From contig OZ238992.1 of NCBI GenBank assembly GCA_965183885.1, forward strand, positions 2,049,548 through 2,113,547: a stretch of DNA of 64,000 nt, written 5' to 3'. Position numbers and translations under genes: made by a program. This document shows, one piece after another, positions 48,280 to 64,000 of this stretch (its first letter is position 1; each line of letters opens with the position of its first letter). The notes under the pieces are model-generated. The model searched no databases and was not told the DNA's origin. It worked only from the letters and a program-made list of their open reading frames with translations. The stretch comes from Flavobacteriales bacterium. Lineage in GTDB: Bacteria; Bacteroidota; Bacteroidia; Flavobacteriales; BACL11.

Positions 48280-48321
48280 ATTTTGTATTATTGTAACATA
48301 TTAATAATAAAAAAAATAGAT

Positions 48322-49911
48322 ATGAAAAAAACTTTACAAGCAACACTTTTTGTTTCCTTAGCATTATTGGGTTTTACATCAAGTGCACAAGATAGATATC
48401 TTGACGATGTATTTACAGATGTAACTGTTACTACAGAACAGTACGCAACAAATATTAGCATTTTACCAATGCTACAAAACTTGCCTCCTGCTCCAGCAAA
48501 CTTAAATTGTGATATATATGAACCAACAGGAGATAGTTTAACAAACCGTCCTGTAATTATTGTTACTCATACAGGTAGTTTTTTACCTCCAGTAATTAAT
48601 GGTCAAGCTACAGGATCAAGAACTGATTCTTCAATAGTTCAACAATGTATGAGATGGGCAAGAAAAGGTTATGTTGCCGTTGCTATGGATAACCGTTTAG
48701 GATGGAATCCTAGCTCAAGTGATCAAAATGTAAGAACATCTACTCTTTTACAAGCAGCATATAGAGGAATACAAGATGCAAAAGCTATGGTTAGATATAT
48801 GAGAATGACTGAAGCTACAGGAAACTCATACGGAATTGATCCTAATAAAATTGTTTTAGGAGGTCAAGGAACAGGTGCTTATATTTCTTTAGGATATGCT
48901 ACTCTTGACACTACATCAGAGTTATACCTTCCTAAATTCTTAGATTTTACAGACCCTACTGCTCCAACTCCATATGTTTACCCTCCAGTATTTGGTAATA
49001 TTGATGGAACAGATTCAACTTATGCTCCTATTTATGATACTTTAGGAAATATTGTAGGAAGTATGTTATTTAATATCCCAAATAACCCTTCATATAGTAA
49101 TGATATTAATTTAGCATTTAACTTAGGAGGTGCTCTTGCTGATATCTCTTGGCTTGAAGCTGGTGATGTACCAATGGTTTCTTTCCATTGTGAAAATGAT
49201 CCTTATGCTCCTTTAGATACTGGTGATGTAATTGTACCTACTACAGGAGATTTTGTTGTTGAAGTTATGGGTAGTAGAACAGTACAACATTATGCAAATT
49301 CTTTTGGTAATAATGATATTTTTGTTCAAGCAGGGTTTACTGATGCCTTTACAAATGCTGCTAATGTAAATAATGATGGATATGAAGGTTTCTATAAGTT
49401 TATTACTCCTGCTCCATCTACTACTCCAACACCAGTTGGTTTAGAAGAAGAACAAGGGTCTCCTTGGGACTGGTGGGATAATGCAACTTATGATCCTGCT
49501 TTTGCAGCTTATCATGGAGTTCCAGCTGGTACAGGTGCAGCATTATCATTATTAGGTAACCCTGATATGTCATCTCAAAAAGGAAACACTTACCTTGATA
49601 CTATTCAAGGGTATTTAAACCCTAGGATTTATATAGCTCTTGGTTTAGGAAGCACTTCAGCTATTAATGATGTTATTGAATCATCAACTGAGATATACCC
49701 TAACCCTGCAAGCAATAAAGTTAATGTGGTTAGTTATGCTGTAGGAATCAATACTATTGAAGTATATAACCTAAGAGGACAATTAGTATTACGTAAAGAA
49801 GTAAACGCTAATACTATTTCTTTAAATACTTCTAATTTAGAAACAGGATTATATATCATGAATATAAAATCAGATAATACTTCTATTAAAAGAAAGCTTA
49901 TTATTAGATAA
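48322..49911 (+). CDS. T9SS type A-secreted alpha/beta-hydrolase-fold protein (catalytic Ser apparently absent)
   Basis: DIYEPTGD...RPVII.THTGSF, GYVAVAMDNRL, QDAKAMVRY, GIDPNKIVLGGQGTGA; CTD IYPNPA...VYNLRGQLV...GLYIM; ATG at 48322. Confidence 0.85.
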   Translation: MKKTLQATLFVSLALLGFTSSAQDRYLDDVFTDVTVTTEQYATNISILPMLQNLPPAPANLNCDIYEPTGDSLTNRPVIIVTHTGSFLPPVINGQATGSRTDSSIVQQCMRWARKGYVAVAMDNRLGWNPSSSDQNVRTSTLLQAAYRGIQDAKAMVRYMRMTEATGNSYGIDPNKIVLGGQGTGAYISLGYATLDTTSELYLPKFLDFTDPTAPTPYVYPPVFGNIDGTDSTYAPIYDTLGNIVGSMLFNIPNNPSYSNDINLAFNLGGALADISWLEAGDVPMVSFHCENDPYAPLDTGDVIVPTTGDFVVEVMGSRTVQHYANSFGNNDIFVQAGFTDAFTNAANVNNDGYEGFYKFITPAPSTTPTPVGLEEEQGSPWDWWDNATYDPAFAAYHGVPAGTGAALSLLGNPDMSSQKGNTYLDTIQGYLNPRIYIALGLGSTSAINDVIESSTEIYPNPASNKVNVVSYAVGINTIEVYNLRGQLVLRKEVNANTISLNTSNLETGLYIMNIKSDNTSIKRKLIIR

Positions 49912-49930
49912 TAATTATTCTAAAAAAATT

Positions 49931-49964
49931 AAAAAAAGGAGAAGCAATTGCTTCTCCTTTTTTT
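49931..49964 (+). terminator. Intrinsic terminator (perfect palindrome)
   Basis: AAAAAAAGGAGAAGCAATTGCTTCTCCTTTTTTT. Confidence 0.9.
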
Positions 49965-50038
49965 ATAACTCTTCTATTTTAATACTATAGCTACTGCTTT
50001 AAAATAATAAGTGTTAACAATTCATTAAACTGTATTTT

Positions 50039-50052
50039 ATGACATATGTCAT
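50039..50052. promoter_or_regulatory. Palindromic operator ATGAC-ATAT-GTCAT upstream of doxX
   Basis: Perfect 14-bp palindrome 7 nt upstream of the TATATTTG -7 element (50060-50067). Confidence 0.6.
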
Positions 50053-50092
50053 ATTTTTATATATTTGCAGTATTAACCTAAAAAACTAAACT

Positions 50093-50476
50093 ATGGAAGC
50101 TACATTCGTATTAATATGTCAGATAATAATTGCTATAATATTTATTTTAGCTGGATTTTTAAAATTAACCAATAGTAGAGAAAGCTTATTAAAGAAAGTA
50201 AGTTGGGCTGAAGATTATAATATACAAACAATTAGATTTATTGGGGTATTAGAATTACTAGGAGGATTAGGAGTAATACTTCCTTTTGCATTTGGAGCTT
50301 ACTTATGGTTAGTTCCTATGGCTTGTATGGGATTAGCTATGGTTATGTCAGGAGCTATAGTTGTACATATTGGTAGAGAGGAATTTAACCATGTAATGGT
50401 AAACTTATTTATTTTATTTATGTCAGCAGGTGTTAGTTTTTACCGTTTATTAGAGTTAAACCTTGCCTGGTTATAA
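50093..50476 (+). CDS. DoxX family membrane protein
   Basis: FILAGFLKL, RFIGVLELLGGLG, ACMGLAMVM.GA..VHIGREE. Confidence 0.85.
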   Translation: MEATFVLICQIIIAIIFILAGFLKLTNSRESLLKKVSWAEDYNIQTIRFIGVLELLGGLGVILPFAFGAYLWLVPMACMGLAMVMSGAIVVHIGREEFNHVMVNLFILFMSAGVSFYRLLELNLAWL

Positions 50477-50501
50477 AAAAACTCATTAAATAGCTTAAAA
50501 T

Positions 50502-50531
50502 AAAAAAAACTGACATTTGTCGGTTTTTTTT
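50502..50531 (+). terminator. Probable terminator after doxX
   Basis: A8-CTGAC-ATTT-GTCGG-T8. Confidence 0.6.
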
Positions 50532-50537
50532 ATTTCT

Positions 50538-50551
50538 ATGATATATATCAC
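50538..50551. promoter_or_regulatory. FNR-type box, moeA promoter
   Basis: ATGAT-ATAT-ATCAC, 22 nt upstream of TACTTTTG (50574-50581). Confidence 0.75.
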
Positions 50552-50585
50552 TATTTTGCATATCTGATAAGAGTACTTTTGTCAT

Positions 50586-51773
50586 ATGATTAGTGTAGAA
50601 AAAGCAAAAGAAATAATATTTTTAGAAAGTAAAAAAACAAAGGCTATAAAACAAAAGGTTATAGCTTCCGTTGGTTCTATACTTGCAGAAGATATCATTG
50701 CAGAAATCAATATCCCTTCTTTTAATAATTCAGCCATGGATGGTTATGCATTTAAATATGCTGATTTTGAACGAGGAATTTTAAAATTTAAACTTCAGGA
50801 AGAAGTAAAAGCCGGAGACAATACTTCAGTTGTTGTACAAGAATCATGCTGCTCCCCTATTTATACTGGAGCTCCAATACCTGAAGGCGCTGACACCGTA
50901 GTAATGCTTGAGGAAACTACCCCAAAAGGAGATAGTATTGAAATTAATGCTGATTATAAAAATAAACTAGGAAAGCATATCAGAATTAAAGGAGAACAAA
51001 TACAAAAAGGGAACCTTGCATTAAAAAAAGGAACAATAATAAATCCTGCTACTGCATCCTACCTATCTGCTTTAGGAAACTCAGAAGTTAAAATCTTTCA
51101 AGCTCCAAAAGTTAAAATTATCACTACAGGAAATGAGATAATTAAACCAGGTACTCCTCTTAAATTTGGTCAGATTTATGAAAGTAATTCTACAGCGCTT
51201 ATATCGCTTCTAAAACAACAAAATGTTAAGGATATTAAACATGAAGTAGCTAAAGATACATTAGAAGAATTACAAGCTACTTTAGAAGATGTTAATGTTT
51301 ATGATATTGTAATTGTTACTGGAGGAATTTCAGTAGGAAAATATGATTTAGTTGCTGATGCTCTTGCTGCAATTGGAGTTGAAAAAAAATTATATAAAAT
51401 TGCTCAGAAACCAGGAAAACCACTTTATTTTGGAACTAAGGATAACACCCTGTTTTTTGCATTACCTGGAAACCCTGCTGCTGTAATTACCTCTTATTAT
51501 GAATATATCTATCCAACAATAAAAAAGATGATGGGCTTTTCTGATTTTGAATTACAGAAATTAAGTACTATTTTACTAAAAGATGTAAAGATAAAAACAA
51601 GCAGAGCCCACTTTTTAAAAGGAAAGATTAATGCTAATGGAGTTGATATTTTAGGAGGGCAAGATTCTCATATCTTAAATTCTTTTGCTGCTGCTAATTG
51701 CTTAGTATATCTTAAGGATAAAGAGTTATGGAAAACAGGGGATAATGTTGAAGTTCACTTATTACCGCGCTAA
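50586..51773 (+). CDS. moeA: Molybdopterin molybdotransferase
   Basis: PSFNNSAMDGYA, IYTGAPIPEGADTVVMLE, IITTGNEI, IYESN, TGGISVGKYD, KPGKP, LPGNP. Confidence 0.95.
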   Translation: MISVEKAKEIIFLESKKTKAIKQKVIASVGSILAEDIIAEINIPSFNNSAMDGYAFKYADFERGILKFKLQEEVKAGDNTSVVVQESCCSPIYTGAPIPEGADTVVMLEETTPKGDSIEINADYKNKLGKHIRIKGEQIQKGNLALKKGTIINPATASYLSALGNSEVKIFQAPKVKIITTGNEIIKPGTPLKFGQIYESNSTALISLLKQQNVKDIKHEVAKDTLEELQATLEDVNVYDIVIVTGGISVGKYDLVADALAAIGVEKKLYKIAQKPGKPLYFGTKDNTLFFALPGNPAAVITSYYEYIYPTIKKMMGFSDFELQKLSTILLKDVKIKTSRAHFLKGKINANGVDILGGQDSHILNSFAAANCLVYLKDKELWKTGDNVEVHLLPR

Positions 51774-52339
51774 TGGAAATAACTGCTATAATATTAGCTG
51801 GAGGCTTAAGTTCTAGGATGGGAACTGATAAAGGAGTAATTCAACTTGATGAAAAAAAAATGATTGAGAAAGTAATTACAAACCTCACTCCTTTTTGTGA
51901 TACAATACTTATAAGTGCTAATAATAATAACTACAATTACTTAGGTCATAAAATCATTAAAGATAAATATGGTAGAATTGGTCCTGTTGGCGGGATTTTA
52001 AGCTGCTTAGAAGAAAGTAAAACAACGGCTAACCTTGTAATGAGTTGTGATACTCCTAACATTAGTGCTACAGTAATAAAGCAACTATTAATCAAAACTG
52101 AAAATTATGATACGATACTTCCTTATCATCATAATAGGTTTGATCCCCTTACAGCTTATTATAACAAAAGCTGTATACCTATATTAAAGGAAATGATTAA
52201 CAATAAAGAATATAAATTACAACATATCATAAAAAACCTAAACTATAAGAAAGTTTATTTTAAAGATGAAGACGAGACATTAAAAGAATTTATTAATATT
52301 AACGATAAAAACGACCTAAAACGCTACTATGAAAATTAA
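51773..52339 (+). CDS. mobA: Molybdenum cofactor guanylyltransferase
   Basis: IILAGGLSSRMGTDK, GPVGGI, SCDTP, FININ. Confidence 0.9.
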   Translation: MEITAIILAGGLSSRMGTDKGVIQLDEKKMIEKVITNLTPFCDTILISANNNNYNYLGHKIIKDKYGRIGPVGGILSCLEESKTTANLVMSCDTPNISATVIKQLLIKTENYDTILPYHHNRFDPLTAYYNKSCIPILKEMINNKEYKLQHIIKNLNYKKVYFKDEDETLKEFININDKNDLKRYYEN

Positions 52340-52562
52340 AGTACTTTTTTTTGGGATCCTTGAAGATATTACTGCATGTAAAGAGATGGAATTAACTGAA
52401 ATTGCAACGAGTAATCAACTTAAAGAGATTCTAAATTCAAAATATCCTAAGCTAACTGAAAGCACATTTCAATTGGCTTTAAATCAATCAATAATAACAG
52501 AAAATACTTCCTTAAATAATGGTGATACAATTGCTTTATTACCGCCTTTTGCAGGAGGGTAA
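52329..52562 (+). CDS. moaD: Molybdopterin synthase sulfur carrier
   Basis: KVLFFG...ALNQ...GDTIALLPPFAGG (C-terminal GG). Confidence 0.93.
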   Translation: MKIKVLFFGILEDITACKEMELTEIATSNQLKEILNSKYPKLTESTFQLALNQSIITENTSLNNGDTIALLPPFAGG

Positions 52563-52573
52563 AAATAATAGAA

Positions 52574-52996
52574 ATGGGAAAAAATGTATTAACACAAGGA
52601 CCTATAAGTCCTGATAAAATTGCAAAGTCAATTGCTAACCACAGTCATAAAACTGGAATTGGAGCACATAATATATTTCTAGGACAGGTAAGAGCCGATA
52701 AACATGAAGGAAAATCTGTTACAGGAATAGAATACTCTGCCTATGAAGATATGGCTGAGCGTATTTTTAGTGAAATAAGAGAAGGAATTTTTGAGAAATA
52801 TGATATTACCTGTATGCATATTTATCATAGTATAGGAATGGTAAAAGCAGGTGAAATTTCATTATTTGTTTTTGTATCCTCAAAACACAGAGGTGTAAGT
52901 TATGATGCATCAAGAGCAGTTGTAGAAGCAATAAAAGAAAGGGCTCCTATCTGGAAAAAAGAACTTATTGAAGGAGAAAAACATAATTGGGTTTAA
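52574..52996 (+). CDS. moaE: Molybdopterin synthase catalytic subunit
   Basis: GAHNIFLGQVR, EYSAY, GEISLFV.VSSKHR, IKERAPIWKKE. Confidence 0.93.
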   Translation: MGKNVLTQGPISPDKIAKSIANHSHKTGIGAHNIFLGQVRADKHEGKSVTGIEYSAYEDMAERIFSEIREGIFEKYDITCMHIYHSIGMVKAGEISLFVFVSSKHRGVSYDASRAVVEAIKERAPIWKKELIEGEKHNWV

Positions 52997-53026
52997 AAAG
53001 AATTAGAAAAATTAAAAAAGAATAAA

Positions 53027-53935
53027 ATGAAAGATATAAGTTGGAAAGTTAAAACACTACGTACAGCAACTGCACAGGCAGTTGTAAAAATTGGACCTTT
53101 AGGGATGGCAGCAATTAAAAATAAAACTGTGCCTAAAGGAGATCCTTTTGAGATTTCAAAAATAGCAGGAATGTTAGCCGTTAAAAATACATCAGGAGTT
53201 ATTCCTCATTGTCATCCTATGCCAACAGAGAATTCTGATATTTATTTTGAAATTGAAGGAGATAAAGTTATCATTAAATTATCTGTAACCACAATATATA
53301 AAACAGGTTGTGAAATTGAAGCAATTTATGGAGCAACAACAACTGCAGTAACACTTTACGACTTGCTAAAACCTGTAGAAACAGAATTAGAAATATCAGA
53401 TGTTAAACTTCTTGAAAAAAGAGGTGGAAAATCAGACTTTATAAAAGATATCGCTCCTGATTTAATGGCAAGCGTAATTGTAATGTCTGATAGTATCTCT
53501 GCAGGAAAGAAAGAAGACAGATCAGGAAAAGCTATTGTAAGCAAACTAAATGAATGTGCTGTTAACAATATTAAATATCATATTATACCTGATGAAAAAC
53601 AAGAGTTACAGGATCTAGTTAAGGATAGTTTAGCCTTAGGTAGTAAGCTAATTATTACAACTGGAGGTACAGGATTATCATCAAGAGATATTACTCCAGA
53701 GAGCCTAAGACCTATGCTAGATGTAGAAATACCAGGAATAATGGAGGCTACAAGAGCGTATGGACAAGAGCGTACACCCTACTCAATGTTATCAAGAGGC
53801 GTTGCCGGGCTTATAAATGATTGTTTGATAATTGCATTACCAGGGTCAACTAGAGGAGCTACAGAAAGTATGGATGCTCTTTTCCCTTATATACTACACA
53901 TCTACAGAGTAATAAAAGGTAGAAGACACGACTAA
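53027..53935 (+). CDS. moaC: MoaC-MoaB(MogA) fusion
   Basis: MKDIS.K..TLRTA, KGD, IPHCHP, GCEIEA, LYDLLK, LLEKRGGKS; then SDS...DRSG, TTGGTG...RDITPE, LPGS. Confidence 0.92.
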   Translation: MKDISWKVKTLRTATAQAVVKIGPLGMAAIKNKTVPKGDPFEISKIAGMLAVKNTSGVIPHCHPMPTENSDIYFEIEGDKVIIKLSVTTIYKTGCEIEAIYGATTTAVTLYDLLKPVETELEISDVKLLEKRGGKSDFIKDIAPDLMASVIVMSDSISAGKKEDRSGKAIVSKLNECAVNNIKYHIIPDEKQELQDLVKDSLALGSKLIITTGGTGLSSRDITPESLRPMLDVEIPGIMEATRAYGQERTPYSMLSRGVAGLINDCLIIALPGSTRGATESMDALFPYILHIYRVIKGRRHD

Positions 53936-53937
53936 AG

Positions 53938-54684
53938 ATGGAATATATTCTTATCTGTATATTAATAATGGCATTTCTCTATGCTTCAGTTGGTCATGGA
54001 GGAGCAAGTGGTTATCATGCTATTATGGCACTTTTTGCAGTAGAGACTATATTAATGAAATCATCTGCACTTACCTTAAATATTTTTGTTGCAGGCATAT
54101 CCTTTTATCAATATCAAAAAGCTGGGTATTTTAGGTGGAAAGTATTTTTACCATTTGCAATAAGTTCTATTCCTCTTGCATACCTAGGGGGAACAATAGA
54201 AATTGCCTCTGGACTTTATAAAGGAATCTTAGGTTTATTTCTAGTATTTGCAGTACTTAAAATGCTAGGACTTATAGGAAAAGAACAGGAGAAATTAAGT
54301 CAACTACCATTTGGAATAGGATTATTATTTGGAGCTATATTAGGGTTTATTTCAGGACTAATAGGTATTGGGGGAGGAATCATTTTAAGCCCACTCTTAT
54401 TACTCTTTGGTTGGGCAAAGATGAAGGAAGCAGCAGCAATCTCAGCCTTATTTATCCTTGTAAACTCATCAAGTGCACTTTTAGGAATTATAAATTCAGG
54501 AAATTATACCCCTATAAATACTATATGGATATGGGTAATAATAGCTATAATTGGAGGGTTTGCTGGAAGCTATATTGGTAGTAAAAAAATGACAAATAAA
54601 GGTGTAAGATATTTACTTGCTTTAGTATTAGCCTTAGCTAGTGTTAAATTGCTTAACACCTTTTATTATTACCTAATAAACTAA
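53938..54684 (+). CDS. TauE/SafE (TSUP) family permease
   Basis: YASVGHGGASGY, GLIGIGGGIILSP, FILVNS..AL.G. Confidence 0.88.
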   Translation: MEYILICILIMAFLYASVGHGGASGYHAIMALFAVETILMKSSALTLNIFVAGISFYQYQKAGYFRWKVFLPFAISSIPLAYLGGTIEIASGLYKGILGLFLVFAVLKMLGLIGKEQEKLSQLPFGIGLLFGAILGFISGLIGIGGGIILSPLLLLFGWAKMKEAAAISALFILVNSSSALLGIINSGNYTPINTIWIWVIIAIIGGFAGSYIGSKKMTNKGVRYLLALVLALASVKLLNTFYYYLIN

Positions 54685-54687
54685 TAA

Positions 54688-54716
54688 AAAAGCCCTATAA
54701 ATATTATAGGGCTTTT
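54688..54716. terminator. Bidirectional terminator between tauE-like gene and ric
   Basis: AAAAGCCCTATAA-ATA-TTATAGGGCTTTT. Confidence 0.85.
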
Positions 54717-54722
54717 AACTGT

Positions 54723-55430
54723 TTAGTTTTTAGTAGCATTTTCCATTTCAATTGCTTTAGGAAATAGAATGTTATTTTCTAAATGAATATGAATATGTAA
54801 ATCATCTTGATATACCTTTAAATGGTGGTAAAGAGCTTTGTATGTATTACATGCAAAAGGTGGCGGTGTAAAATTATCACTTAACTTTTCTATCTCTTTA
54901 AAGATATCCCCAGCACTATCGTGCTCTAGCTCCATCATTCTAATTGGATTTTGTACTGAGCCAAAAGGAATAGTAATTTCTTCATTACTTCTATTTGCTA
55001 CAGCCAAATTTATAATGTGAGGAAACAATATCCCCTCCTCCTTCATTAAATGTTGTTGCAACTCAATTGCTACCTCATTAAATAGCTTTGCTATTTCAAT
55101 TGTTTCTGGTTGTGCATGACCATGAACTTTTGCTACTTTATTAGCAAACTCAATTATTATTGGCGTTGTTTCCTTAACATATTTATGATGAGTTGTTAAA
55201 ATATGATTGGCTAAAACATCTAATTCCATTTTATCAAAATTAGTATCAGCCATTGCAGCATCTAACACTTCTATTTCTTTAAATATTGTTAAAGCTTCTA
55301 CACCTTTTCCTTTACAAGCTTCTGCTACAGGCTTTCCTCCTCCGCAACAAAAATCAATACCATATTTTTTAAATATTGTTGCAGTTCTCATATCTGAGGC
55401 AACAATTTGTGCTACTGTTTTATCTTTCAT
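54723..55430 (-). CDS. ric: Iron-sulfur cluster repair di-iron protein (RIC/YtfE/ScdA)
   Basis: GIDFCCGG, HH.YV, KVAKVHG, HLMKEE.ILFP, MELEH, HIHLENNILFP. Confidence 0.95.
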   Translation of the reverse strand: MKDKTVAQIVASDMRTATIFKKYGIDFCCGGGKPVAEACKGKGVEALTIFKEIEVLDAAMADTNFDKMELDVLANHILTTHHKYVKETTPIIIEFANKVAKVHGHAQPETIEIAKLFNEVAIELQQHLMKEEGILFPHIINLAVANRSNEEITIPFGSVQNPIRMMELEHDSAGDIFKEIEKLSDNFTPPPFACNTYKALYHHLKVYQDDLHIHIHLENNILFPKAIEMENATKN

Positions 55431-55479
55431 TTTTATTTATTTTATACAACAAAGATAGTTGCAGAAAATAAATATTTTT

Positions 55480-55493
55480 ATGATTCATATCAT
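55480..55493. promoter_or_regulatory. FNR-type box, ric promoter
   Basis: ATGAT-TCAT-ATCAT, 22 nt upstream of minus-strand TATCTTTG (55457-55450). Confidence 0.8.
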
Positions 55494-55506
55494 GTATAGC
55501 AATAAA

Positions 55507-56193
55507 TTAACTATGCTTTACACAGTGTTTTTTAATCTCTCCTAAATTCAATATTTTGATTTGTTTCCCAATATTTTTAATGACCTTTTGCTCTTCTAAC
55601 TTCTTTAGCATTCTCACCACTGTTTCGTAGGTAGCTCCAACTAAACTAGCTAACTCTCTTCTGCTTAACGTATACTTTAACATGTTATCCTCATCAAGTC
55701 CAAAGGCATCAATATTAAACATTATTGCAGTAGAAATTCTTTCAATAACAGTCATATGCAACATTTGTTGCATTCTTTTTTCAGTATTTTTTAGTTCTTC
55801 AGCAAAGAAGATCATCATATTATACGATAGATTTGCATTTGCTTTTAATACCTTTATAAAGATATCCATTGGTATAAAAGTAAGGGTAACATCAGTAAGA
55901 CTTTTAACAGTAATTGGATAAAAATAATCATTACCAAACCCTCTATGCCCTAAAATATCTCCTTCTTTTGCAAGCCTTATTATTCGTTCTTGATTTTCAC
56001 GACTAAGGCTAATTTTAACCATTCCCGATTCAATAAAATAGATTCCTTCTACTCTATCTCCCTGAGTGATAATTTCTGAGCCTTTGCTAAACTTAAATTC
56101 TTTCTTGTAAACATCAATTACCTCTAGCCATTCATTAGAACAATGATTACTTAATAAACAATTTTTAATACTACAATTCTCACACTTTATCAT
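55507..56193 (-). CDS. Crp/Fnr family transcriptional regulator with N-terminal Cys cluster
   Basis: CENC-x4-C-x5-C, cNMP-like fold (YFIESG.VKI, GDILG), HTH LSRRELASLVGATYETVVRML. Confidence 0.9.
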   Translation of the reverse strand: MIKCENCSIKNCLLSNHCSNEWLEVIDVYKKEFKFSKGSEIITQGDRVEGIYFIESGMVKISLSRENQERIIRLAKEGDILGHRGFGNDYFYPITVKSLTDVTLTFIPMDIFIKVLKANANLSYNMMIFFAEELKNTEKRMQQMLHMTVIERISTAIMFNIDAFGLDEDNMLKYTLSRRELASLVGATYETVVRMLKKLEEQKVIKNIGKQIKILNLGEIKKHCVKHS

Positions 56194-56212
56194 CTAAATA
56201 CTTGTTGTTTTA

Positions 56213-57208
56213 TTAACCTCCAATTGCAAACATACACCTTCCCTTTCCAAGGTCTTGCTCTTGTTTAATATCTTCAAATTTAGGAAGCCCTCCTCTCTCT
56301 TCAAACTTTGTTTCAATATTCTGAAATATTAATTTTTCAATATCTTCTCCATTTCTAAAAGCAGTAAGTAGGTCTAGCTCACCATTAGAAAATAAACAAT
56401 TTTTTATTTTTCCATCAGCTGTAAGCCTTATTCTATTACATGTCCCACAAAATGAATCAGTAACCGAACTTATCACTGCAAAAGTACCTTTTCCATTTTT
56501 CAATTGGAAATTTTTTGCAGTATCATTTTTTGCATCCTTAATTCTACTGTATTCAAATTTCTCATCTACAATATTTAGGATTTCTTTATAGCTTACAATT
56601 TTAGAAAAATCCCAAGAGTTTCCATTAAAAGGCATGAACTCTATAAACCTAACATGAACTTTATCGTTTCTTGTCCACTCAATAAAATCAGCAATTTCAT
56701 GAATATTAACATCCTTTAAAACCACCATATTTACTTTGATTTTAAAACCATTATCAACAAATAGTTTAATATTATCAAGTACCTTATTAAGATAATTACG
56801 TTTAGTAATAGTATAGAATTTTTCAGCATCTAAAGTATCTAAACTAATATTTACTGACTCTAACCCAAGTTCTTGAAACAACTCCATATATTGGTCTAAT
56901 AAATATCCGTTTGATGTTATTGCTAGTTCAATTGGAAGGTTTGCTAATCGAGAAATAATCTCCCGTGCATCCTTTCTTATTAATGGCTCTCCACCTGTAA
57001 GTCTAATTTTTTTAACCCCCAACGAAACAAATGTCTTTGCTATATTCAAAAGTTCATCAGCCGACATTAATTTATCATTGGGATAAAAATTTATCTTCTC
57101 ATCAGGCATACAATAGAAACACCTAAAATTACACTTATCAGTCATAGAAATACGCAAGTAATCGTGTTTCCTTCCAAAAGTATCTTTTATGCTATTTTTA
57201 AGTTCCAT
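56213..57208 (-). CDS. moaA: GTP 3',8-cyclase
   Basis: DTFGR.HDYLRISMTDKCNFRCFYC, LTGGEP, RFIEFMP, FCGTCNRIRLTADG..KNCL, C-terminal IGG. Confidence 0.97.
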   Translation of the reverse strand: MELKNSIKDTFGRKHDYLRISMTDKCNFRCFYCMPDEKINFYPNDKLMSADELLNIAKTFVSLGVKKIRLTGGEPLIRKDAREIISRLANLPIELAITSNGYLLDQYMELFQELGLESVNISLDTLDAEKFYTITKRNYLNKVLDNIKLFVDNGFKIKVNMVVLKDVNIHEIADFIEWTRNDKVHVRFIEFMPFNGNSWDFSKIVSYKEILNIVDEKFEYSRIKDAKNDTAKNFQLKNGKGTFAVISSVTDSFCGTCNRIRLTADGKIKNCLFSNGELDLLTAFRNGEDIEKLIFQNIETKFEERGGLPKFEDIKQEQDLGKGRCMFAIGG

Positions 57209-57939
57209 TATTTTACTTTATCAATCAAAGCATTCATTTCATCAAACTCTTCAGTTTTAATCAATTTATAAGCCAGCTGGAAAAGCGTTTCATCTTCTCT
57301 ATAAATATGAAGTCTTAACATTTCAATTAACTCTAACCCATTTTGATATGCGATATCACTTACCATGTTTTTTGAATCCTGATCTGCTAAACGCGATGAA
57401 ATACCAATTAAATTAAAGGCTAAAGTGCCTAATTGAATAAATTGATAATGATCATCTTCAAAAATATCAACTGGTGTTTGTGAAAAAGTATCTGTACCAT
57501 GCTCCCCTGTTGCTCTAAATCTTTCTTCTAATAAAGGAAATAAAACCTTTTCTTCTTTCCTGTTATGCAATAACAACTCACTATCAAAAAAATGAAAAAA
57601 CTCAGAGAAGCTATCATTTATCTCTTTGTTAATTTTCCATTTATCTTCTTTATATTGATGTAAAGCTTTTTCAAATATATTTAGTTTCTTAATAGCAACC
57701 TTATGCTCTAACATTAACTTTTTTATTACATCAGGCATTTGCTCATAAGTTACTGCTTCAATCTTTTTTGAATAAGCTTCTGGTGGGTCCATTGGAGAAT
57801 CACCTTCATCAAGACTAGGGTCTTTAGTTACTTCTCTTTTTATCGGATCATCTTGCGCTATTTTTCTACGCATATCTTTATCTAAAGTACTGCTTACTCT
57901 TTTCTTTGAATTCTTATCTACAATTGTTATCTTTTTCAT
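57208..57939 (-). CDS. Hemerythrin-like domain protein
   Basis: EH...HNRKEEKVLFP...DDH...HIYREDETLF. Confidence 0.85.
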   Translation of the reverse strand: MKKITIVDKNSKKRVSSTLDKDMRRKIAQDDPIKREVTKDPSLDEGDSPMDPPEAYSKKIEAVTYEQMPDVIKKLMLEHKVAIKKLNIFEKALHQYKEDKWKINKEINDSFSEFFHFFDSELLLHNRKEEKVLFPLLEERFRATGEHGTDTFSQTPVDIFEDDHYQFIQLGTLAFNLIGISSRLADQDSKNMVSDIAYQNGLELIEMLRLHIYREDETLFQLAYKLIKTEEFDEMNALIDKVK

Positions 57940-57967
57940 GTTTCAAATTTACTTAATTTTAAGCATG

Positions 57968-57990
57968 AAAAGGACTCAAAAGAGTCCTTT
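57968..57990 (-). terminator. Hairpin after narK2
   Basis: AAAGGACTC-AAAA-GAGTCCTTT. Confidence 0.7.
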
Positions 57991-57992
57991 CT

Positions 57993-58006
57993 ATGCTATA
58001 TATCAT
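57993..58006. promoter_or_regulatory. FNR-type box (one mismatch), hemerythrin-moaA-fnr promoter
   Basis: ATGCT-ATAT-ATCAT, 41 nt upstream of minus-strand TAAATTTG (57951-57944). Confidence 0.5.
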
Positions 58007-58013
58007 ATTACTA

Positions 58014-59645
58014 TTATGGGTTCTTTATATCTGCTTTTGGTCCTAAGTAGTACCACCAGTTTAAGATTGCGCAAAATGCATAAAACACTGCAAATCCGTA
58101 CATTGCAACCTCAGGAGTACCTGATTTCATATTTTCACCAATAATTTTAGGAATTAAGAATGCTCCATATGCAGCAACTGCTGATGTCCAACCTAATACT
58201 GGTCCTGCTTGTTCTTTATTAAATACCATAGAAATAGTACGGAAAGTAGATCCGTTACCAATACCTGTAGCAGCAAATAGAATCACAATTAAAACAAAGA
58301 ATTCCATAAAGAAGTCTTGTGGTGTTGCAGAATGATAAGCTAAATTAGCATAGTACCCTACTCCTATAGAAGCTAAAACCATTACTACTGCAACAACTTG
58401 AGTAATAATTGCACCTCCTAGTTTATCTGCCATTTTTCCTCCAATTGGTCTGATTAATGCACCTACAAAAGCACCAACCCAAACATACATAAACGTTGCA
58501 GGTCCATCAGGATTTGCTAAACTATGATCCCAAACTCCGTCAGCACCTAAAATATGCTGTACACCAAATATAAATTTAATTGCTAAACCTACTGCTGCTG
58601 CAAACCCAATAAATGAACCAAAAGTCATGGTATAGATAATTGTCATTACCCAAGTATGCTTATTGTCAAAAATTGAGAATTGCCTTTTTAAATTATCTTT
58701 AATTTCTCCAGGAGAAAGTGCTTTCATTAATACAATCGTTAAAGCAATTACTATAGGCAATACTATCCATTTTACCCAAGTATAAGCTTTAAATGTTAGG
58801 ATAAAATATAAACCAACTGCAGCAGTTAATAAACCAATTGCTAGCAAGAATAAAATTCTTCCGAATGAAACTCCAGGACCTTTAATATTTGGAGATACTG
58901 CCTCAGTTCTAATATTATTCATTCTAGTCCAACCGAAATATGCTAAAGGAATTAACCATAACATCCATACCCATCCTGCATTTGCTAACCAAGTTTCTGA
59001 CCCTGCTGCAATTCTTTTAAAAATTGTTCCTGAAGTACTTGATAAAGTTAATGGATCGCCACTTAAAGCCCCTAAGAAAGGAACTGTCATTACTAGTGGA
59101 ATAAGAATTTGCATGGTAGTAACTCCAAAGTTACCTAAACCTGCATTCATACCTAAAGCATATCCTTGTTCTTTTTTAGGATAGAAAAATGAGATATTAC
59201 TCATCGATGAAGCAAAGTTACCCCCACCAAAACCTGATAAGAAAGCCATCACCATAAAAAACTCAAATGATGTTGTTGGATCTTGTAATCCTATTGCTGT
59301 ACCAAATGCTGGTATCATTAATAAAGCTGTGGTAAAGAAAATTGTATTTCTACCTCCTGCTAAACGAATAAAGAAAGATGAAGGAATACGCAAAGTTGCT
59401 CCTGTTAAACCTGCAATAGCTGGTAGCATAAATAATAATCCCATAGCCTCTACAGGGTCTTTACCAAAAGTAAATCCTAAATTTTTCATTTGTACGGTAA
59501 TAATACCCCACATTAACCAAACTGAGAACCCTACTAATAAACTTGGGATAGACACCCATAAGTTACGGTTCGCGATTTTTTTACCTGTTGATTCCCAAAA
59601 ACTTTGGTCTTCAACATCCCATTTTGTTAAGTCTTTATTTGACAT
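58014..59645 (-). CDS. narK: Nitrate/nitrite transporter, NarK2-type
   Basis: WDVED..FW...ANRNLW.S, GGRN, GFGGGNFASSMSNISFFYP, AGLGNFG, TFGSFIG, GIGNGSTFR. Confidence 0.92.
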   Translation of the reverse strand: MSNKDLTKWDVEDQSFWESTGKKIANRNLWVSIPSLLVGFSVWLMWGIITVQMKNLGFTFGKDPVEAMGLLFMLPAIAGLTGATLRIPSSFFIRLAGGRNTIFFTTALLMIPAFGTAIGLQDPTTSFEFFMVMAFLSGFGGGNFASSMSNISFFYPKKEQGYALGMNAGLGNFGVTTMQILIPLVMTVPFLGALSGDPLTLSSTSGTIFKRIAAGSETWLANAGWVWMLWLIPLAYFGWTRMNNIRTEAVSPNIKGPGVSFGRILFLLAIGLLTAAVGLYFILTFKAYTWVKWIVLPIVIALTIVLMKALSPGEIKDNLKRQFSIFDNKHTWVMTIIYTMTFGSFIGFAAAVGLAIKFIFGVQHILGADGVWDHSLANPDGPATFMYVWVGAFVGALIRPIGGKMADKLGGAIITQVVAVVMVLASIGVGYYANLAYHSATPQDFFMEFFVLIVILFAATGIGNGSTFRTISMVFNKEQAGPVLGWTSAVAAYGAFLIPKIIGENMKSGTPEVAMYGFAVFYAFCAILNWWYYLGPKADIKNP

Positions 59646-59671
59646 TTTTTTTATTTTAAATTACTATAAAA

Positions 59672-59694
59672 TGGGAGTAGATTCTCTACTCCCA
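59672..59694 (-). terminator. Strong intergenic hairpin between the two narK genes
   Basis: TGGGAGTAGA-TTC-TCTACTCCCA; short T-run on the minus strand. Confidence 0.6.
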
Positions 59695-59700
59695 ATATTT

Positions 59701-61206
59701 TTATTCTTCTCCGAATGATCCTTTAGGTTCCTTAAGTGCAACTGAGCAGTAGAAGAAACTAATTAAAGCACCAGCTGCTAGTATAAAAAAGAAGGTTTTA
59801 GAATCAACCATACTTAGTATAAACAAGTAAGTTACAGCACCTACATTACCATAAGCACCTGCCATTCCTGCAATACGACCTGTCATATCTTTTTTAATTG
59901 CAGGTATCATTGCAAATGTTGCTCCCTCTGCCCCTTGTACAAACATTGAAGCAAACATGGTTATCATTACCGAAACTACTAGCCACCAAGTACCTTCAAA
60001 CATTGGAACTAAAGTTTGTACTCCATCAACTACAGGACCATAATCACTAATGAATCCCATTAATCCAAACCCTAATGAAATACCAATCATATACATAAGC
60101 ATTGTTTTCTTTCTACTTCCCATCTTATCTGACAAATAACCTCCTAATGGACGAGCAACTAAATTAATTACAGCAAATGACCCTGCTACTAAACCTGCCA
60201 TCTGTGGAGAGATCTTAAAGGTACTTTCAAAGAAGAAAGGTAACATAGATACTACAGCAAGCTCTGCACCAAAATTGGCAAAGTAGGTAGAGTTTAAAGC
60301 TCCTACACTACTAAAAGCAAACTTCTCCTCTTCAGGAATACCTGCTTTTAATCTAGGCACATTAAATTGAATAATTTTATATGCTTTATAAATATAGAAT
60401 ACTGCAAGCACAGCCCACATCATATACATTACATCTAAACTAAACATGTTTTCACCATAAATCACTTGTTTTTGTAAGTTTCTGGCTAATAAACCAAGAG
60501 CACCATATAAAGGAACAGTCCATAATAAATATTGATATAAACCGCTATAAGATGAAACAGGCATAATTGAAGATTTACTTTTATCAACAATAATCTCTTT
60601 TCCTGTTGGGTAATCCTTTACCTTAAAGTAGTAAAAAACTCCATAAACAGCAGTAAGAATACTTGATATTGCCATAGCATAACGCCATCCAAATTCACCA
60701 CCAATTAATGTTAAACCAATATAAGGAATTAAACCTGCAGCTGCAGCTGACCCAAAGTTACCCCAACCTGCATAAAATCCTTCTGCTCTTCCAATAAGTT
60801 TTGCTGGAAACCAGTTATCTGTCATTTTAATACCAATTACAAAACCTGCTCCAATTGATGATAATAATAAACGAGAAATAACTAATTGCATAAAGGTATC
60901 ACCAAATGCAAACATAAGCCCTGGTATAACAGAGATTACCATAAGACCAGAAAATACAACCCTAGGCCCATACTTATCTACCATTGCACCAATAATAATC
61001 CTAGCCGGAATAGTTAAGGCAACATTACAAAGTAAAAGAGCTTTAAAATTTCCTCCAGTAAGGAAATCAAAGTTCTCAGTCATAGCTGTTTTTAATGGTG
61101 CCATGTTGAACCATACAAAGAAAGTTAAAAAGAATGCAATCCATGTATAATGCAATACTCTTACCCTTTCTTGTGAGAAATCGAATAACTTAAATTTATC
61201 TTCCAT
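59701..61206 (-). CDS. narK: Nitrate/nitrite transporter, NarK1-type
   Basis: LHYTW.AFF.TF.VWFNMAP, IPAR..IG..VDKYGPR, GAGFVIGI, AGWGNFG, FGAELAVVSMLP, GAEGATFAMIP. Confidence 0.92.
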   Translation of the reverse strand: MEDKFKLFDFSQERVRVLHYTWIAFFLTFFVWFNMAPLKTAMTENFDFLTGGNFKALLLCNVALTIPARIIIGAMVDKYGPRVVFSGLMVISVIPGLMFAFGDTFMQLVISRLLLSSIGAGFVIGIKMTDNWFPAKLIGRAEGFYAGWGNFGSAAAAGLIPYIGLTLIGGEFGWRYAMAISSILTAVYGVFYYFKVKDYPTGKEIIVDKSKSSIMPVSSYSGLYQYLLWTVPLYGALGLLARNLQKQVIYGENMFSLDVMYMMWAVLAVFYIYKAYKIIQFNVPRLKAGIPEEEKFAFSSVGALNSTYFANFGAELAVVSMLPFFFESTFKISPQMAGLVAGSFAVINLVARPLGGYLSDKMGSRKKTMLMYMIGISLGFGLMGFISDYGPVVDGVQTLVPMFEGTWWLVVSVMITMFASMFVQGAEGATFAMIPAIKKDMTGRIAGMAGAYGNVGAVTYLFILSMVDSKTFFFILAAGALISFFYCSVALKEPKGSFGEE

Positions 61207-61267
61207 GATTTTAAACTGTTTATGATTAATTATGAAGCAAAACTAAATCTTGTCGCTAGCAAAAATC

Positions 61268-61303
61268 ATAATATATATCATTTTAAAATATGATACTTAT
61301 CAT
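61268..61303. promoter_or_regulatory. Tandem FNR-type boxes, narK promoter
   Basis: ATAAT-ATAT-ATCAT (61268-61281), 22 nt upstream of minus-strand TAGTTTTG (61245-61238), and perfect ATGAT-ACTT-ATCAT (61290-61303). Confidence 0.75.
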
Positions 61304-61351
61304 AGTTTTGCTTTATTATAGAAGAAGATGTAAACACTATTTTAGCTTTTA

Positions 61352-61365
61352 TTGATAATTATCAA
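61352..61365. promoter_or_regulatory. Canonical FNR box
   Basis: TTGAT-AATT-ATCAA, identical to the proteobacterial FNR consensus. Confidence 0.6.
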
Positions 61366-61393
61366 AAAAAAGAGCAACTTTTCAGCTGCTCTT
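61364..61393 (-). terminator. Intrinsic terminator after narI
   Basis: Minus strand AAGAGCAGC-TGAAAA-GTTGCTCTT followed by a T-tract. Confidence 0.75.
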
Positions 61394-61419
61394 AGAGTAT
61401 TCCAAACTAACTAAATGTA

Positions 61420-62142
61420 TTAGTTGTTCTTTGATCGTTTTCCATAAACCATTTTAGTCGATTTTCTTATATCATGTCTGTTCCAGTTCCAAATTACTCT
61501 TTGGTAAGGTCTCCAAATGTATGCAAATGGATAAACTAAGAAGTGCATGTATCTTGTAAAAGGAATAAGTCCAATTATTGAAAATGCTGATACAATATGA
61601 ATCTTAACTGCCAATGGCATAGTTGCTACTACTGATATATCAGGTGAGAAAGTAAATATCGATACCATATATGGTGTTAATGATGATGCAAACCAAGTAG
61701 ACCCATATCTATGAAAGTAAGCAATCCATACCCCAGAAATAATTTGAGTTAATAAAGTAGCAAATACTACAACATCCATTTTTGAAGTTTGCAGCTTCAC
61801 TCTTTTGTTTCTAATTCTTCTTATTACCAACATAATAATTCCAAATAATGTTGCTAAACCAAAAGCAAAAGCAGTACTTTCTAATATTATTAATCGAACA
61901 GGATCTCCATTAAAAGCAAGTACTGATTTAGGAAATAAAAATGCAACTAAATGCCCAAAAAATAAGAACATCATTCCCCAGTGAAAAGGTTGAGATCCCC
62001 AAAATAATGATTTACCTTCTAAAAATTGTGTTGATAAAGATGATACAGTGAAACCTTTGTTCATGTATCTTAGGATAGTACCTATTAACATTATTGCTAA
62101 TGCTGCATACGGTAACCCTACAAATAAAAAATAATTACTCAT
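61420..62142 (-). CDS. narI: Respiratory nitrate reductase gamma subunit (cytochrome b)
   Basis: PYAAL, SSLSTQFLE, FHWG..FLFFGH, HIVSAF...PFTRYMH...P..Y..RPYQ. Confidence 0.95.
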   Translation of the reverse strand: MSNYFLFVGLPYAALAIMLIGTILRYMNKGFTVSSLSTQFLEGKSLFWGSQPFHWGMMFLFFGHLVAFLFPKSVLAFNGDPVRLIILESTAFAFGLATLFGIIMLVIRRIRNKRVKLQTSKMDVVVFATLLTQIISGVWIAYFHRYGSTWFASSLTPYMVSIFTFSPDISVVATMPLAVKIHIVSAFSIIGLIPFTRYMHFLVYPFAYIWRPYQRVIWNWNRHDIRKSTKMVYGKRSKNN

Positions 62143-62145
62143 GAC

Positions 62146-62781
62146 TTAAAATTGTTTTGTTGTTGTATTTTTTCTTTCAAATAACGACTGATCAACCCCA
62201 CAACCTTTATAGTTGGATAGGAATCCTGTATCGTCATCTCTTTTAATAATAAATGGTTTAAATGCTGTATTAGCAGTATCCTTTTTCATTACATCTTGTA
62301 ACATTTTTAATAACTCTAAATATGCATTCTGAATATTAAACTTATCAATCATCTCATCAAGTGCAGGAATACAAATAGTTGCAATTAACTCCTCAGCAAA
62401 CTTTTCCTTTTTGGTTTTTGAAAATAAAGTTAAGATATTAGGAAGATGATCAGAAAGCTCAACACCACAATCGTTACCTGCATTTCGCTGTTCTTCTTTC
62501 ATCTGCACTAAGAAATCACCTCTTTTATAATCTTCACCAAATAAAACATATCCAATATCTAAGAAACAAACTGCCTGGATATCAAATGTTTTAATATAAT
62601 ATTCCTGTTGCTGATATAATGTTAAGGACGAAAAATTTTGAATAAAACCTTTCACTACCTCAGTCTGCTCAGGATAGTCAGTTGATAATGCCCCAATAAC
62701 ATCTAAGGCATTATCCATCAACTCTTCAGTTGGATATCTGAACAGATTAGCTATTAATGTATAGTGGTTATAATTTTTCAT
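62146..62781 (-). CDS. narJ: Nitrate reductase chaperone (delta subunit)
   Basis: QEYYIKTFD...LDIGYVLFGEDYKRG..L..M, ELSDHLP.IL; ATG at 62781 lies 1 nt after the narH stop. Confidence 0.9.
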   Translation of the reverse strand: MKNYNHYTLIANLFRYPTEELMDNALDVIGALSTDYPEQTEVVKGFIQNFSSLTLYQQQEYYIKTFDIQAVCFLDIGYVLFGEDYKRGDFLVQMKEEQRNAGNDCGVELSDHLPNILTLFSKTKKEKFAEELIATICIPALDEMIDKFNIQNAYLELLKMLQDVMKKDTANTAFKPFIIKRDDDTGFLSNYKGCGVDQSLFERKNTTTKQF

Positions 62782-62782
62782 T

Positions 62783-64000
62783 TTATAATCCTCTAGCTGG
62801 AGTTTCTTTAAATCCAAAACCTGTATTTCCTTTCTGATCAGCAGTACTTTCTAACATTTCCATAGCTTCTTCTCTATGAGCTGCAGGAATTACAAATCTT
62901 TGATCAAATAACGGTAATGAAGTAAGTCTAAAGATATCATCTGCTTCCTCTCTACTCATACCCGTATCAGTAAGCGCTTGATTCAATTCTTTAACATCTA
63001 AATCTCCTACAGTTACATCTCTTCTATGTAATCTTACTGTCATTAGTTTTCTGAATACTTCTTTAATTTTCTCTCCATTTCCTGCACTAAATAATGAAGC
63101 TAAGTATTGGATTGGCATTCTTGAAGCATCAATTTTACCCCATAATGAATCTGTAGTAGAATTATATTTTCCGTTTTCAACTGTTGCCATAGCAGGCAAT
63201 AATGGTGGAACATAAAATAAATTTGGTATCGTTCTGAATTCTGGGTGCAATGGTAATGCAACACCCCATTCTTTTACAAACTTATATGTAGGTGATTTTT
63301 TTGCAGCTTCAATTGTAGAGTCAGCAATACCATTTTCTTTAGCAGCTTTAATTACAGCAGGATCATTAGGGTCTAAATAAATTTCCATTTGTCTATCTAC
63401 CAATTCACTCTCATCACATGAAGCTACAGCTTCAATTCTATCAGCATCATAAAGCATTACTCCCAGATATCTAATACGCCCTACACATGAGTGCATACAA
63501 GCTGGAGCTTGTCCTGATTCTAATCTTGGGTAACAAAGAATACATTTTTCTGATTTCCCTGTGTGCCAGTTATAGTACGATTTTTTATAAGGACATGCAG
63601 TTACACACATTCTCCATGCTCTACATTTTTCCTGATTAATAAGTACTACTCCATCCTCTCCTCTTTTATAAATTGCTCCTGAAGGACAAGATGCAACACA
63701 AGAAGGATTTAAACAGTGATTACAAATCCTTGGCAAGTATGCTAAAGTCATTTGTTCCAACTGGAACATTGCTTCTTGCTCCTGAGGACTTAAATTTTTA
63801 AAGTTAACATCCTGTCTTGCATAATCAGGAGTACCTCCTAAATCATCATCCCAGTTTGGTCCTGATTTAAGGTCAATATTCTCACCTGTAATTAATGATT
63901 TTGCACGAGCTGTTGGCTGGTCATCTCCTTCTGGAGCTTCAAATAAATGCTCATACTCATAAGTCCAAGGCTCATAATAGTCATCAATTACTGGCATATT
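62783..64000 (-). CDS. narH: Respiratory nitrate reductase beta subunit (5' part beyond the window)
   Basis: IDDYYEPW, GPNWDDDLGG, YLPRICNHCLNPSCVASCPSG, CRAWRMCVTACPYKK, CILCYPR, CVGRIRY; the frame stays open to the window edge. Confidence 0.97.
   Translation of the reverse strand, partial: NMPVIDDYYEPWTYEYEHLFEAPEGDDQPTARAKSLITGENIDLKSGPNWDDDLGGTPDYARQDVNFKNLSPQEQEAMFQLEQMTLAYLPRICNHCLNPSCVASCPSGAIYKRGEDGVVLINQEKCRAWRMCVTACPYKKSYYNWHTGKSEKCILCYPRLESGQAPACMHSCVGRIRYLGVMLYDADRIEAVASCDESELVDRQMEIYLDPNDPAVIKAAKENGIADSTIEAAKKSPTYKFVKEWGVALPLHPEFRTIPNLFYVPPLLPAMATVENGKYNSTTDSLWGKIDASRMPIQYLASLFSAGNGEKIKEVFRKLMTVRLHRRDVTVGDLDVKELNQALTDTGMSREEADDIFRLTSLPLFDQRFVIPAAHREEAMEMLESTADQKGNTGFGFKETPARGL

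Follow-up and report, generated by a model that had tools for sequence, protein, structure and literature searches.

FNR-type boxes at a fixed 22-nt distance from the -7 element in a nar island and in a predicted low-oxygen regulon of a Flavobacteriales bacterium

Introduction

In Escherichia coli, the class II promoters of FNR (narG, narK, dmsA and others) carry a box TTGAT-N4-ATCAA centred at -41.5, and arithmetic on these established positions leaves 22 nt between such a site and the -10 hexamer. Here we analyze boxes of the related sequence ATGAT-N4-ATCAT in the genome of a Flavobacteriales bacterium (family-level lineage BACL11, GenBank assembly GCA_965183885.1), starting from a 64,000-nt stretch of contig OZ238992.1 (positions 2,049,548 to 2,113,547 of the forward strand, hereafter the window) that contains a nar island with molybdenum cofactor (Moco) genes, ric, two narK genes and a Crp/Fnr regulator gene of its own. 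The boxes stand at a fixed distance from the Bacteroidota -7 element TAnnTTTG. From the comparisons below we consider it likely that they are operators of an FNR-type regulator, the chromosomal FNR orthologue most likely being the primary one, which would activate sigma-A promoters from one position.

In several bacteria a global oxygen-sensing FNR acts beside paralogues encoded near nar or denitrification genes, as in the cascades Anr/Dnr of Pseudomonas aeruginosa, FnrP/NNR/NarR of Paracoccus denitrificans and FnrL with three Dnr proteins of Dinoroseobacter shibae (PMC5398030, PMC4771820). Alpha-proteobacterial FixK and FnrN control ccoNOQP (fixNOQP). The Bacteroidota Crp/Fnr regulators so far described, HcpR and MalR (BT4338), share protein family and phylum with those considered here, but their regulons consist of hcp alone or of genes for carbohydrate use, and a fixed class II spacing has not been reported for them. 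The HcpR2 group, which includes Bacteroides, recognizes GTAAC-N4-GTTAC, the motif of Porphyromonas gingivalis being different and deviant, and the comparative study of N-oxide regulators from which these motifs come treated only HcpR for Bacteroides and Porphyromonas (PMC1274295); flavobacterial Crp/Fnr proteins were assigned to MalR in a metagenome study (PMC8510549). In Flavobacterium psychrophilum, a map of transcription start sites (TSSs) places TAnnTTTG at -12 to -5, and the cbb3 oxidase is strongly induced under oxygen limitation, with Fnr not mentioned (PMC9723704). Within the library that we searched, the literature held no description of an FNR regulon, FNR boxes or an ATGAT box in flavobacteria.

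Results

Boxes in the nar island are phased with the -7 element

The window was read base by base and its open reading frames were listed, the term gap denoting the number of nucleotides between a box and its TAnnTTTG element. A preliminary description of the window had placed boxes and -7 elements before moeA, ric and narK; its coordinates were right at every base (Table 1), and the gap is exactly 22 nt at all three promoters. Both of the extra boxes that it named are also present, a perfect one exactly 22 bp upstream of the proximal narK1 box and one with a single mismatch before the hemerythrin-moaA-crp/fnr operon. Two more, before the DoxX-family gene and at the narI terminator, had been overlooked. 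The boxes starting at 50538, 55480, 61268 and 61290 have the form of a palindromic Crp/Fnr-type operator with the core TGA-N6-TCA.

Table 1. Boxes, -7 elements and genes of the nar island, with two features from elsewhere in the genome (window positions unless marked as genome positions)
Feature	Position	Strand	Remarks
moeA box ATGATATATATCAC	50538-50551	+	gap 22; predicted centre -41.5; deviant half-site (ATCAC)
moeA-operon -7 element TACTTTTG	50574-50581	+	
ric box ATGATTCATATCAT	55480-55493	-	perfect on - strand, ATGATATGAATCAT; gap 22; predicted centre -41.5
ric -7 element TATCTTTG	55457-55450	-	
Proximal narK1 box (- strand) ATGATATATATTAT	61268-61281	-	gap 22; predicted centre -41.5; one degenerate half-site (ATTAT)
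narK1 -7 element TAGTTTTG	61245-61238	-	
Distal narK1 box ATGATACTTATCAT	61290-61303	-	perfect, - strand ATGATAAGTATCAT; gap 44; predicted centre -63.5
Hemerythrin-operon box ATGCTATATATCAT	57993-58006	-	- strand ATGATATATAGCAT; one mismatch, degenerate; gap 41; predicted centre -60.5; weak candidate
-7 element before hemerythrin-like gene TAAATTTG	57951-57944	-	
DoxX box ATGACATATGTCAT	50039-50052	+	gap 7; predicted centre near -26.5
-7 element before DoxX-family gene TATATTTG	50060-50067	+	
Canonical E. coli-type box TTGATAATTATCAA	61352-61365		overlaps T-tail of narI terminator (hairpin 61370-61393)
DoxX-family gene	50093-50476		DoxX_2 Pfam match
moeA-mobA-moaD-moaE-moaCB-tauE operon	50586-54684	+	
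ric, iron-sulfur repair di-iron protein	54723-55430	-	TIGR03652, 239.8 bits
hemerythrin-moaA-crp/fnr operon	57939-55507	-	regulator is last gene
Island Crp/Fnr regulator	55507-56193	-	Cys4, 7, 12, 18; helix T-Y-E-T-V-V-R; GHRG in effector pocket
narK2	58014-59645	-	nitrate/nitrite transporter, TIGR00886; downstream of the two-box promoter with narK1
narK1	59701-61206	-	nitrate/nitrite transporter, TIGR00886; two-box promoter
narI, narJ, narH	61420-64000	-	3' part of cyt c-narGHJI operon
Promoter of cyt c-narGHJI, box ATGACATTTGTCAT	genome 3244		gap 22; beyond the window
Chromosomal FNR orthologue	genome 1006036-1006755		outside the window; helix T-E-T-T-I-R

The whole genome (GC 32.6%) was then scanned against a crude gene map in which 92% is coding. 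Sixteen perfect boxes were found, 11 of them intergenic where composition alone predicts 0.93, and with at most one mismatch to ATGAT-N4-ATCAT the intergenic set comprises 28 boxes. In ten of these 28, TAnnTTTG follows at gap 22 (against a background of 0.096 per gap; Poisson P ~2e-17), the combination for which the preliminary description had advised a genome scan; gaps of 21-23 account for 14 and a gap of 44 for four (P ~3e-6). The gap histogram shows one sharp peak at 22 and a harmonic at 44. No box inside a gene was found at gap 22, and a reversed-pattern control gave 0 matches in this genome versus 12 real composite sites. The fixed phasing of box and core promoter thereby exceeds chance, and on these spacing statistics the moeA, ric and narK cases belong to a genome-wide rule, the motif reaching about 16 promoters. 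The tandem form, with a second box 22 bp upstream, occurs at narK, at a porin-like gene and at a sulfide:quinone reductase (SQR)-like gene; before an EamA-family gene a gap-44 box was found alone.

The arrangement extends well beyond this genome. Among 401 Flavobacteriales genomes, an exact composite of WTGAT-N4-ATCAW, 22 nt and TAnnTTTG is present in 134, against about six for the reversed control. When the gap was left free between 10 and 40 in the 41 genomes of another genus, 66 of 112 matches fell at 22, 15 at 23, seven at 20 and five at 21, every other gap having at most three. At orthologous sites the length of the spacer is constant while its sequence diverges. The moeA promoter is alike in four genomes, its box, 22-nt gap, ATCAC half-site and leaderless ATG being kept in G016, which has a syntenic island, and in G011 and G012 (genomes of the comparison are given as G numbers). 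The narI-narK spacer of G133, a member of a different family, reads ATGATATAAATTAT, 8 nt, TTGATATGAATCAT, 22 nt, TAATATTG, that is, two boxes 22 bp apart as at narK1 here. These genome and order statistics bear out the view, already taken in the preliminary description, that the boxes are Crp/Fnr-type operators of an ATGAT-N4-ATCAT variant in locked phase with the -7 element.

A gene for a U32-family protein (TrhP/UbiU-like) adjoins the island in G133 and G012 (L016 2400-2500; genome C1:1030368-1031618), and the G133 gene starts with a leaderless ATG and is preceded by a perfect box at gap 23.

Predicted promoter geometry resembles that of class II activation

With TAnnTTTG at -12 to -5, as in F. 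psychrophilum (PMC9723704), a 14-bp box at gap 22 would span -48 to -35 and be centred at -41.5, and a second box at gap 44 would be centred at -63.5, the same centres that the preliminary description had proposed. The 22-nt gap itself, counted to the conserved T-12 A-11, requires no assumption about the TSS and matches the distance between a -41.5 FNR site and the E. coli -10 hexamer. The likeness to E. coli FNR comprises a 14-bp palindrome with the core TGAT-N4-ATCA that ends 22 nt before T-12 A-11, a predicted centre of -41.5, low-oxygen respiratory targets that include narK and narG, and a chromosomal candidate protein with a CxxC, a central Cys (equivalent to Cys122) and the Glu and Arg of the recognition helix. 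The two systems differ in the outer base of the box, which is A here and not T and fits the Ile or Val that stands for FNR Ser212; in the promoter, whose -33/-7 elements are those of Bacteroidota and are served by a sigma-A of 287 aa that lacks region 1.1; in the spacing, which looks tighter here at 22, rarely 21 or 23; in the second site, which lies 22 bp away (-63.5) and not at -61.5 or about -90; and in the third N-terminal Cys, which is displaced or absent in many orthologues.

Across 38 sites from five genomes the consensus is ATGAT-aTAt-ATCAT, and the downstream flank consists of an A followed by a T-run at about -34 to -30. This A-TTTT flank is asymmetric, which argues that it is promoter-related. 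It may serve as the -33 element, but it sits 3 nt nearer to the -7 element than the optimum of 19 bp for Flavobacterium. The genome encodes two paralogous sigma-A-like proteins of 287 aa (genome C1:1840735-1841598 and 1823877-1824740) that are near-identical in region 4.2, where both keep the basic patch IKEKAVRRLK; this patch aligns with the stretch of E. coli sigma-70 that class II activators contact. As to the mechanism, it is very likely that an FNR-type protein activates these promoters in a class II-like manner. A scan for the sigma-70 consensus gave fewer matches than shuffled sequence and was discarded as promoter evidence, being uninformative here.

Candidate targets are those of a low-oxygen regulon

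The ccoS-ccoNO promoter of the cbb3 oxidase (ccoNO, 1288 bits) has a perfect box followed by 22 nt and TTTATTTG. The box is also present at the cco promoter of Flavobacterium johnsoniae. The box whose presence upstream of narG had been raised as a check in the preliminary description does exist, before the cytochrome c gene that precedes narG (Table 1). Further promoters with a box at gap 21-23 belong to nqrA, three cytochrome c-type proteins, an ActA/QrcA-like multihaem protein, an SQR/NDH-like flavoprotein, a distant homogentisate-dioxygenase-like protein, pckA, a porin-like protein and two further Crp/Fnr paralogues (genome 1005318 and 1042948), in addition to moeA, ric and narK in the window. 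Candidate targets thus include a high-affinity oxidase together with genes of anaerobic respiration, and this gene set has the content of an FNR/FixK-type low-oxygen regulon, as predicted from its promoters, and not that of an island-specific circuit.

The porin-like protein (383 aa, genome C1:1387171-1388322) has two boxes, at gaps 22 and 44, and a search of a single library, NCBIfam, gave no family match for it. In G011, G016 and G133 its gene adjoins the nar island (L015 2024-4412; L019 5511-6671; L016 2483-3661), which makes it a candidate outer-membrane channel for nitrate or nitrite.

The motif tracks a chromosomal FNR orthologue

Five Crp/Fnr paralogues are encoded in the genome, and two of them, the island protein and the protein at genome 1006036-1006755, have Glu and Arg in the recognition helix, the residues that read TGA in CRP and FNR. 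In the chromosomal protein all equivalents of the FNR ligands Cys20, Cys23, Cys29 and Cys122 can be found: Cys13 and Cys16 coincide with the FNR CxxC, Cys115 takes the place of Cys122, and Cys25, as the third N-terminal Cys, is shifted by 3 residues. Its helix aligns with FNR V-E-T-I-S-R and has the Glu and Arg, but with Ile in place of Ser it departs from the canonical E--SR pattern; the replacement fits the change from T to A at the outer position of the box.

Proteins of this chromosomal type were found in 185 of the 401 genomes, and across the order they share the CxxC, the central Cys and a helix A-T-E-[ST]-x-I-R in an alignment to Cys20, 23 and 122 of the solved FNR. Within its own family the orthologue occurs only in G000, G011, G012, G016 and G022, which have 12, 9, 7, 11 and 3 composite sites, respectively, compared with a mean of 0.9 in the other 63 genomes of the family, which lack it. 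In G162 and G365, fnr and a ccoI-like gene are divergently oriented, and the ccoI-like gene is followed by a perfect box at gap 22 and then ccoS-ccoNOQP-ccoG.

The island regulator belongs to a Bacteroidota-wide subfamily

The island regulator (Table 1) is encoded next to the nar genes and has a helix that fits an FNR-like box, yet its N-terminus is Cys-rich, it has Thr at the position of the central Cys and therefore lacks the full set of FNR ligands, and its best family scores are far below the cut-offs. Its helix Y-E-T-V-V-R aligns with CRP R-E-T-V-G-R. Members of its subfamily are spread over Bacteroidota (alignment A1) with an invariant GHRG, a nearly invariant T-Y-E-T..R and variable Cys residues, and GHRG stands where CRP has the cAMP-contacting G-E-L-G. 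This combination hints that the effector is not cAMP and perhaps that the protein has no iron-sulfur cluster.

Relatives with 35-38% identity, interrupted by a stop in G226, lie in G282 and G226 upstream of a 351-aa gene (L017 5092-10498; L018 5110-10562). The cluster continues with a molybdopterin oxidoreductase, a 4Fe-4S protein, a Rieske protein and moaA, and ATGAT boxes stand in front of it.

Operon structure and surroundings of the island

On the - strand the gene order is ric; hemerythrin-moaA-crp/fnr; narK2, narK1; narI, narJ, narH. The moeA ATG (50586) is the fifth nucleotide after the G of the -7 element, which implies a leaderless mRNA, and the ATG of the hemerythrin-like gene (57939-57944 region) likewise follows its TAnnTTTG by 5 nt. 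The leaderless arrangement is kept for both genes in G000, G016 and G012 and for moeA in G011; in F. psychrophilum only about 5% of mRNAs are leaderless. An Rfam search of 48000-64000 found no riboswitch, which leaves no competing account of moeA and moaA control by a Moco riboswitch.

About 106 nt separate the canonical E. coli-type box TTGATAATTATCAA from the narK -7 element downstream of it. Between narK1 and narK2 there is a 10-bp GC-rich hairpin (59672-59694) that is terminator-like in either orientation and may serve to attenuate transcription within the narK operon. Boxes at gap 7 were seen in two places, before the DoxX-family gene and before the fnr gene of G162 (L036 4079-4092). A box so placed would block the promoter and may reflect repression or autorepression by the same factor, and for the DoxX box the position is suggestive either of a repressor-like site or of a site belonging to another promoter; the DoxX-gene orthologue of G016 has its box at gap 22.

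The single contig of 2.11 Mb begins inside narG and ends inside narH (window 62783-64000; genome C1:1-2368). It starts at about residue 790 of the ~1200 of narG on the - strand, and narH is cut at its N-terminus. About 1.3 kb of narG and narH is thus absent at the junction, and the genome is not closed there.

Discussion

Which protein acts at the boxes is the point on which the preliminary description and our analysis part. It had the island's own Crp/Fnr protein activating moeA, ric and narK and regulating itself through the hemerythrin-moaA-fnr operon, a proposal that we regard as unlikely as it stands. In its favour, the regulator gene lies inside the island and adjoins the perfect ric box, the helix keeps the TGA-reading Glu and Arg, orthologues sit in syntenic box-bearing nar islands of G016 (69% identity) and G133 (41%), relatives in G282 and G226 stand beside another box-bearing molybdoenzyme cluster, and G000, in which the regulator gene stands between ric and moaA, has a ric promoter with its own box. 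Against it, orthologues of the regulator were found in five of the 401 genomes, far fewer than the 134 with the box-plus-22 architecture; a protein of the FNR type fills the regulator slot of the same operon in G148; and the regulator is without the central Cys of FNR. Most telling is G012, whose island is the same except that ric directly follows moaA with no regulator gene between them, and which keeps the moeA box and its spacing intact. This island without a regulator, together with a motif that is spread over genome and order and tracks the other, chromosomal FNR, indicates that the boxes most likely belong first to the FNR orthologue. It is unlikely that the island regulator is the sole activator, it probably shares the boxes as a second-tier, island-specific factor, and there is a roughly even chance that it is a co-activator. 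A comparison of island with non-island boxes gave no convincing sequence difference that would separate the regulators. Autoregulation through the -60.5 box is not supported: this box is degenerate, is not conserved (half of it is kept in G016 and none in G012) and abuts the narK2 terminator hairpin (57969-57990), on whose shoulder it lies. Transcription reading through from narK could provide feedback instead.

Two other accounts seem to us less probable still. The Cys-bearing paralogue at genome 1042948-1043667, which is similar to the P. gingivalis regulator of PDB 2gau, could bind the boxes and activate both itself and the regulon: it has an N-terminal CxxC and a central Cys, and a perfect box at gap 22 precedes its own gene here as well as in G016, G011 and G012. 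However, its helix T-T-A-N-A-I-R has no Glu with which to contact the G:C pair of TGA as FNR and CRP do, the one strong FNR homologue next to the cco operon in family f4 has a Glu-containing helix, and activation of a secondary regulator by FNR would account equally well for the box before the paralogue gene; we consider this account improbable. That the boxes are repressor or chance elements, with the lock to the -7 element reflecting the architecture of AT-rich promoters, appears very improbable indeed. The base composition, the repression-like gap of 7 at the DoxX box and the fnr-proximal box of G162, and the loss of signal at 2 mismatches all speak for it, but they are opposed by the single gap peak with its harmonic, the near-zero reversed-pattern controls and a spacer that holds its length as its sequence diverges. 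The box position moreover leaves the -33 and -7 regions free, and in well-studied Crp/Fnr systems this is an activator position.

Several observations count against assigning the boxes to the FNR orthologue as activator. Many FNR orthologues outside the family of this genome show only three obvious Cys residues. Same-genus genomes without an FNR orthologue keep one-mismatch boxes at the promoter of the homogentisate-dioxygenase-like gene, with changes at three different core positions in a view limited to sites of at most one mismatch; these residual boxes may be decaying after loss of the regulator or may be sites of another one. With five paralogues in the genome, two of them with a Glu/Arg helix, the assignment of protein to box rests on correlation. 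The DoxX box at gap 7 means that not every box fits an activator position. Finally, a looser scan that allowed 2 mismatches in total was drowned in background (50 matches at gaps 21-23 versus 29-43 at control gaps), which leaves the size of the regulon uncertain.

Activation by the chromosomal FNR orthologue nevertheless remains the reading that we prefer. At low oxygen this protein would carry an Fe-S cluster and dimerize; the dimer would bind the box at -41.5 and recruit RNA polymerase, and a second dimer could optionally bind 22 bp further upstream at -63.5. The predicted targets would be the cbb3 oxidase, Na+-NQR, cytochromes c, cyt c-narGHJI, narK, the Moco genes, ric and two secondary Crp/Fnr regulators.

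So conceived, the system resembles the Anr/Dnr, FnrP/NNR/NarR and FnrL/Dnr cascades in that a global oxygen-sensing FNR would stand beside paralogues encoded near nar or denitrification genes, in that near-identical boxes are predicted for the paralogues and in that FNR boxes precede secondary regulators (here genome 1005318 and 1042948). It differs in its island paralogue, which, unlike Dnr, NNR and NarR, has four N-terminal Cys residues and belongs to a Bacteroidota-wide subfamily with invariant GHRG and the helix T-Y-E-T..R. With the control of ccoNOQP by FixK and FnrN it shares a perfect box at the cbb3 operon in the predicted class II position and a regulator gene that adjoins the cco/ccoI cluster (G162, G365), whereas no FixLJ two-component input was identified here and the regulator has Cys ligands, which FNR has and FixK lacks. 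To judge by the comparisons above, the flavobacterial ATGAT box with its fixed gap is very probably the binding site of an oxygen-sensing FNR-type activator that works like FNR of E. coli, in a phylum for which the literature that we searched gave no description of such a site.

Two linked and more speculative readings go beyond this, and we offer them tentatively. Bacteroidota FNR and the unusual sigma-A of the phylum might have co-evolved a rigid grammar that would permit activation from essentially one position, with a gap of 22, a tolerance of about 1 nt and an optional second dimer 22 bp upstream, and the island-type subfamily, with its GHRG pocket, T-Y-E-T..R helix and variable Cys, might be a separate, undescribed class of sensor that shares the FNR operator and adds a nitrate, nitrite or NO signal.

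Flavobacteria of marine and fresh waters have a major part in the reduction of nitrate and the turnover of N2O, and the literature that we searched does not describe how these processes are switched on. The strict rule for box position allows low-oxygen regulons to be predicted from sequence in many genomes, gives a concrete, testable model of a classical activator contacting the divergent Bacteroidota RNA polymerase, and suggests a candidate design of oxygen-responsive promoters for Bacteroidota genetics. If the rigid grammar holds true, low-oxygen and N-oxide regulons, and with them TSSs, would become readable from sequence across the order, perhaps across the phylum.

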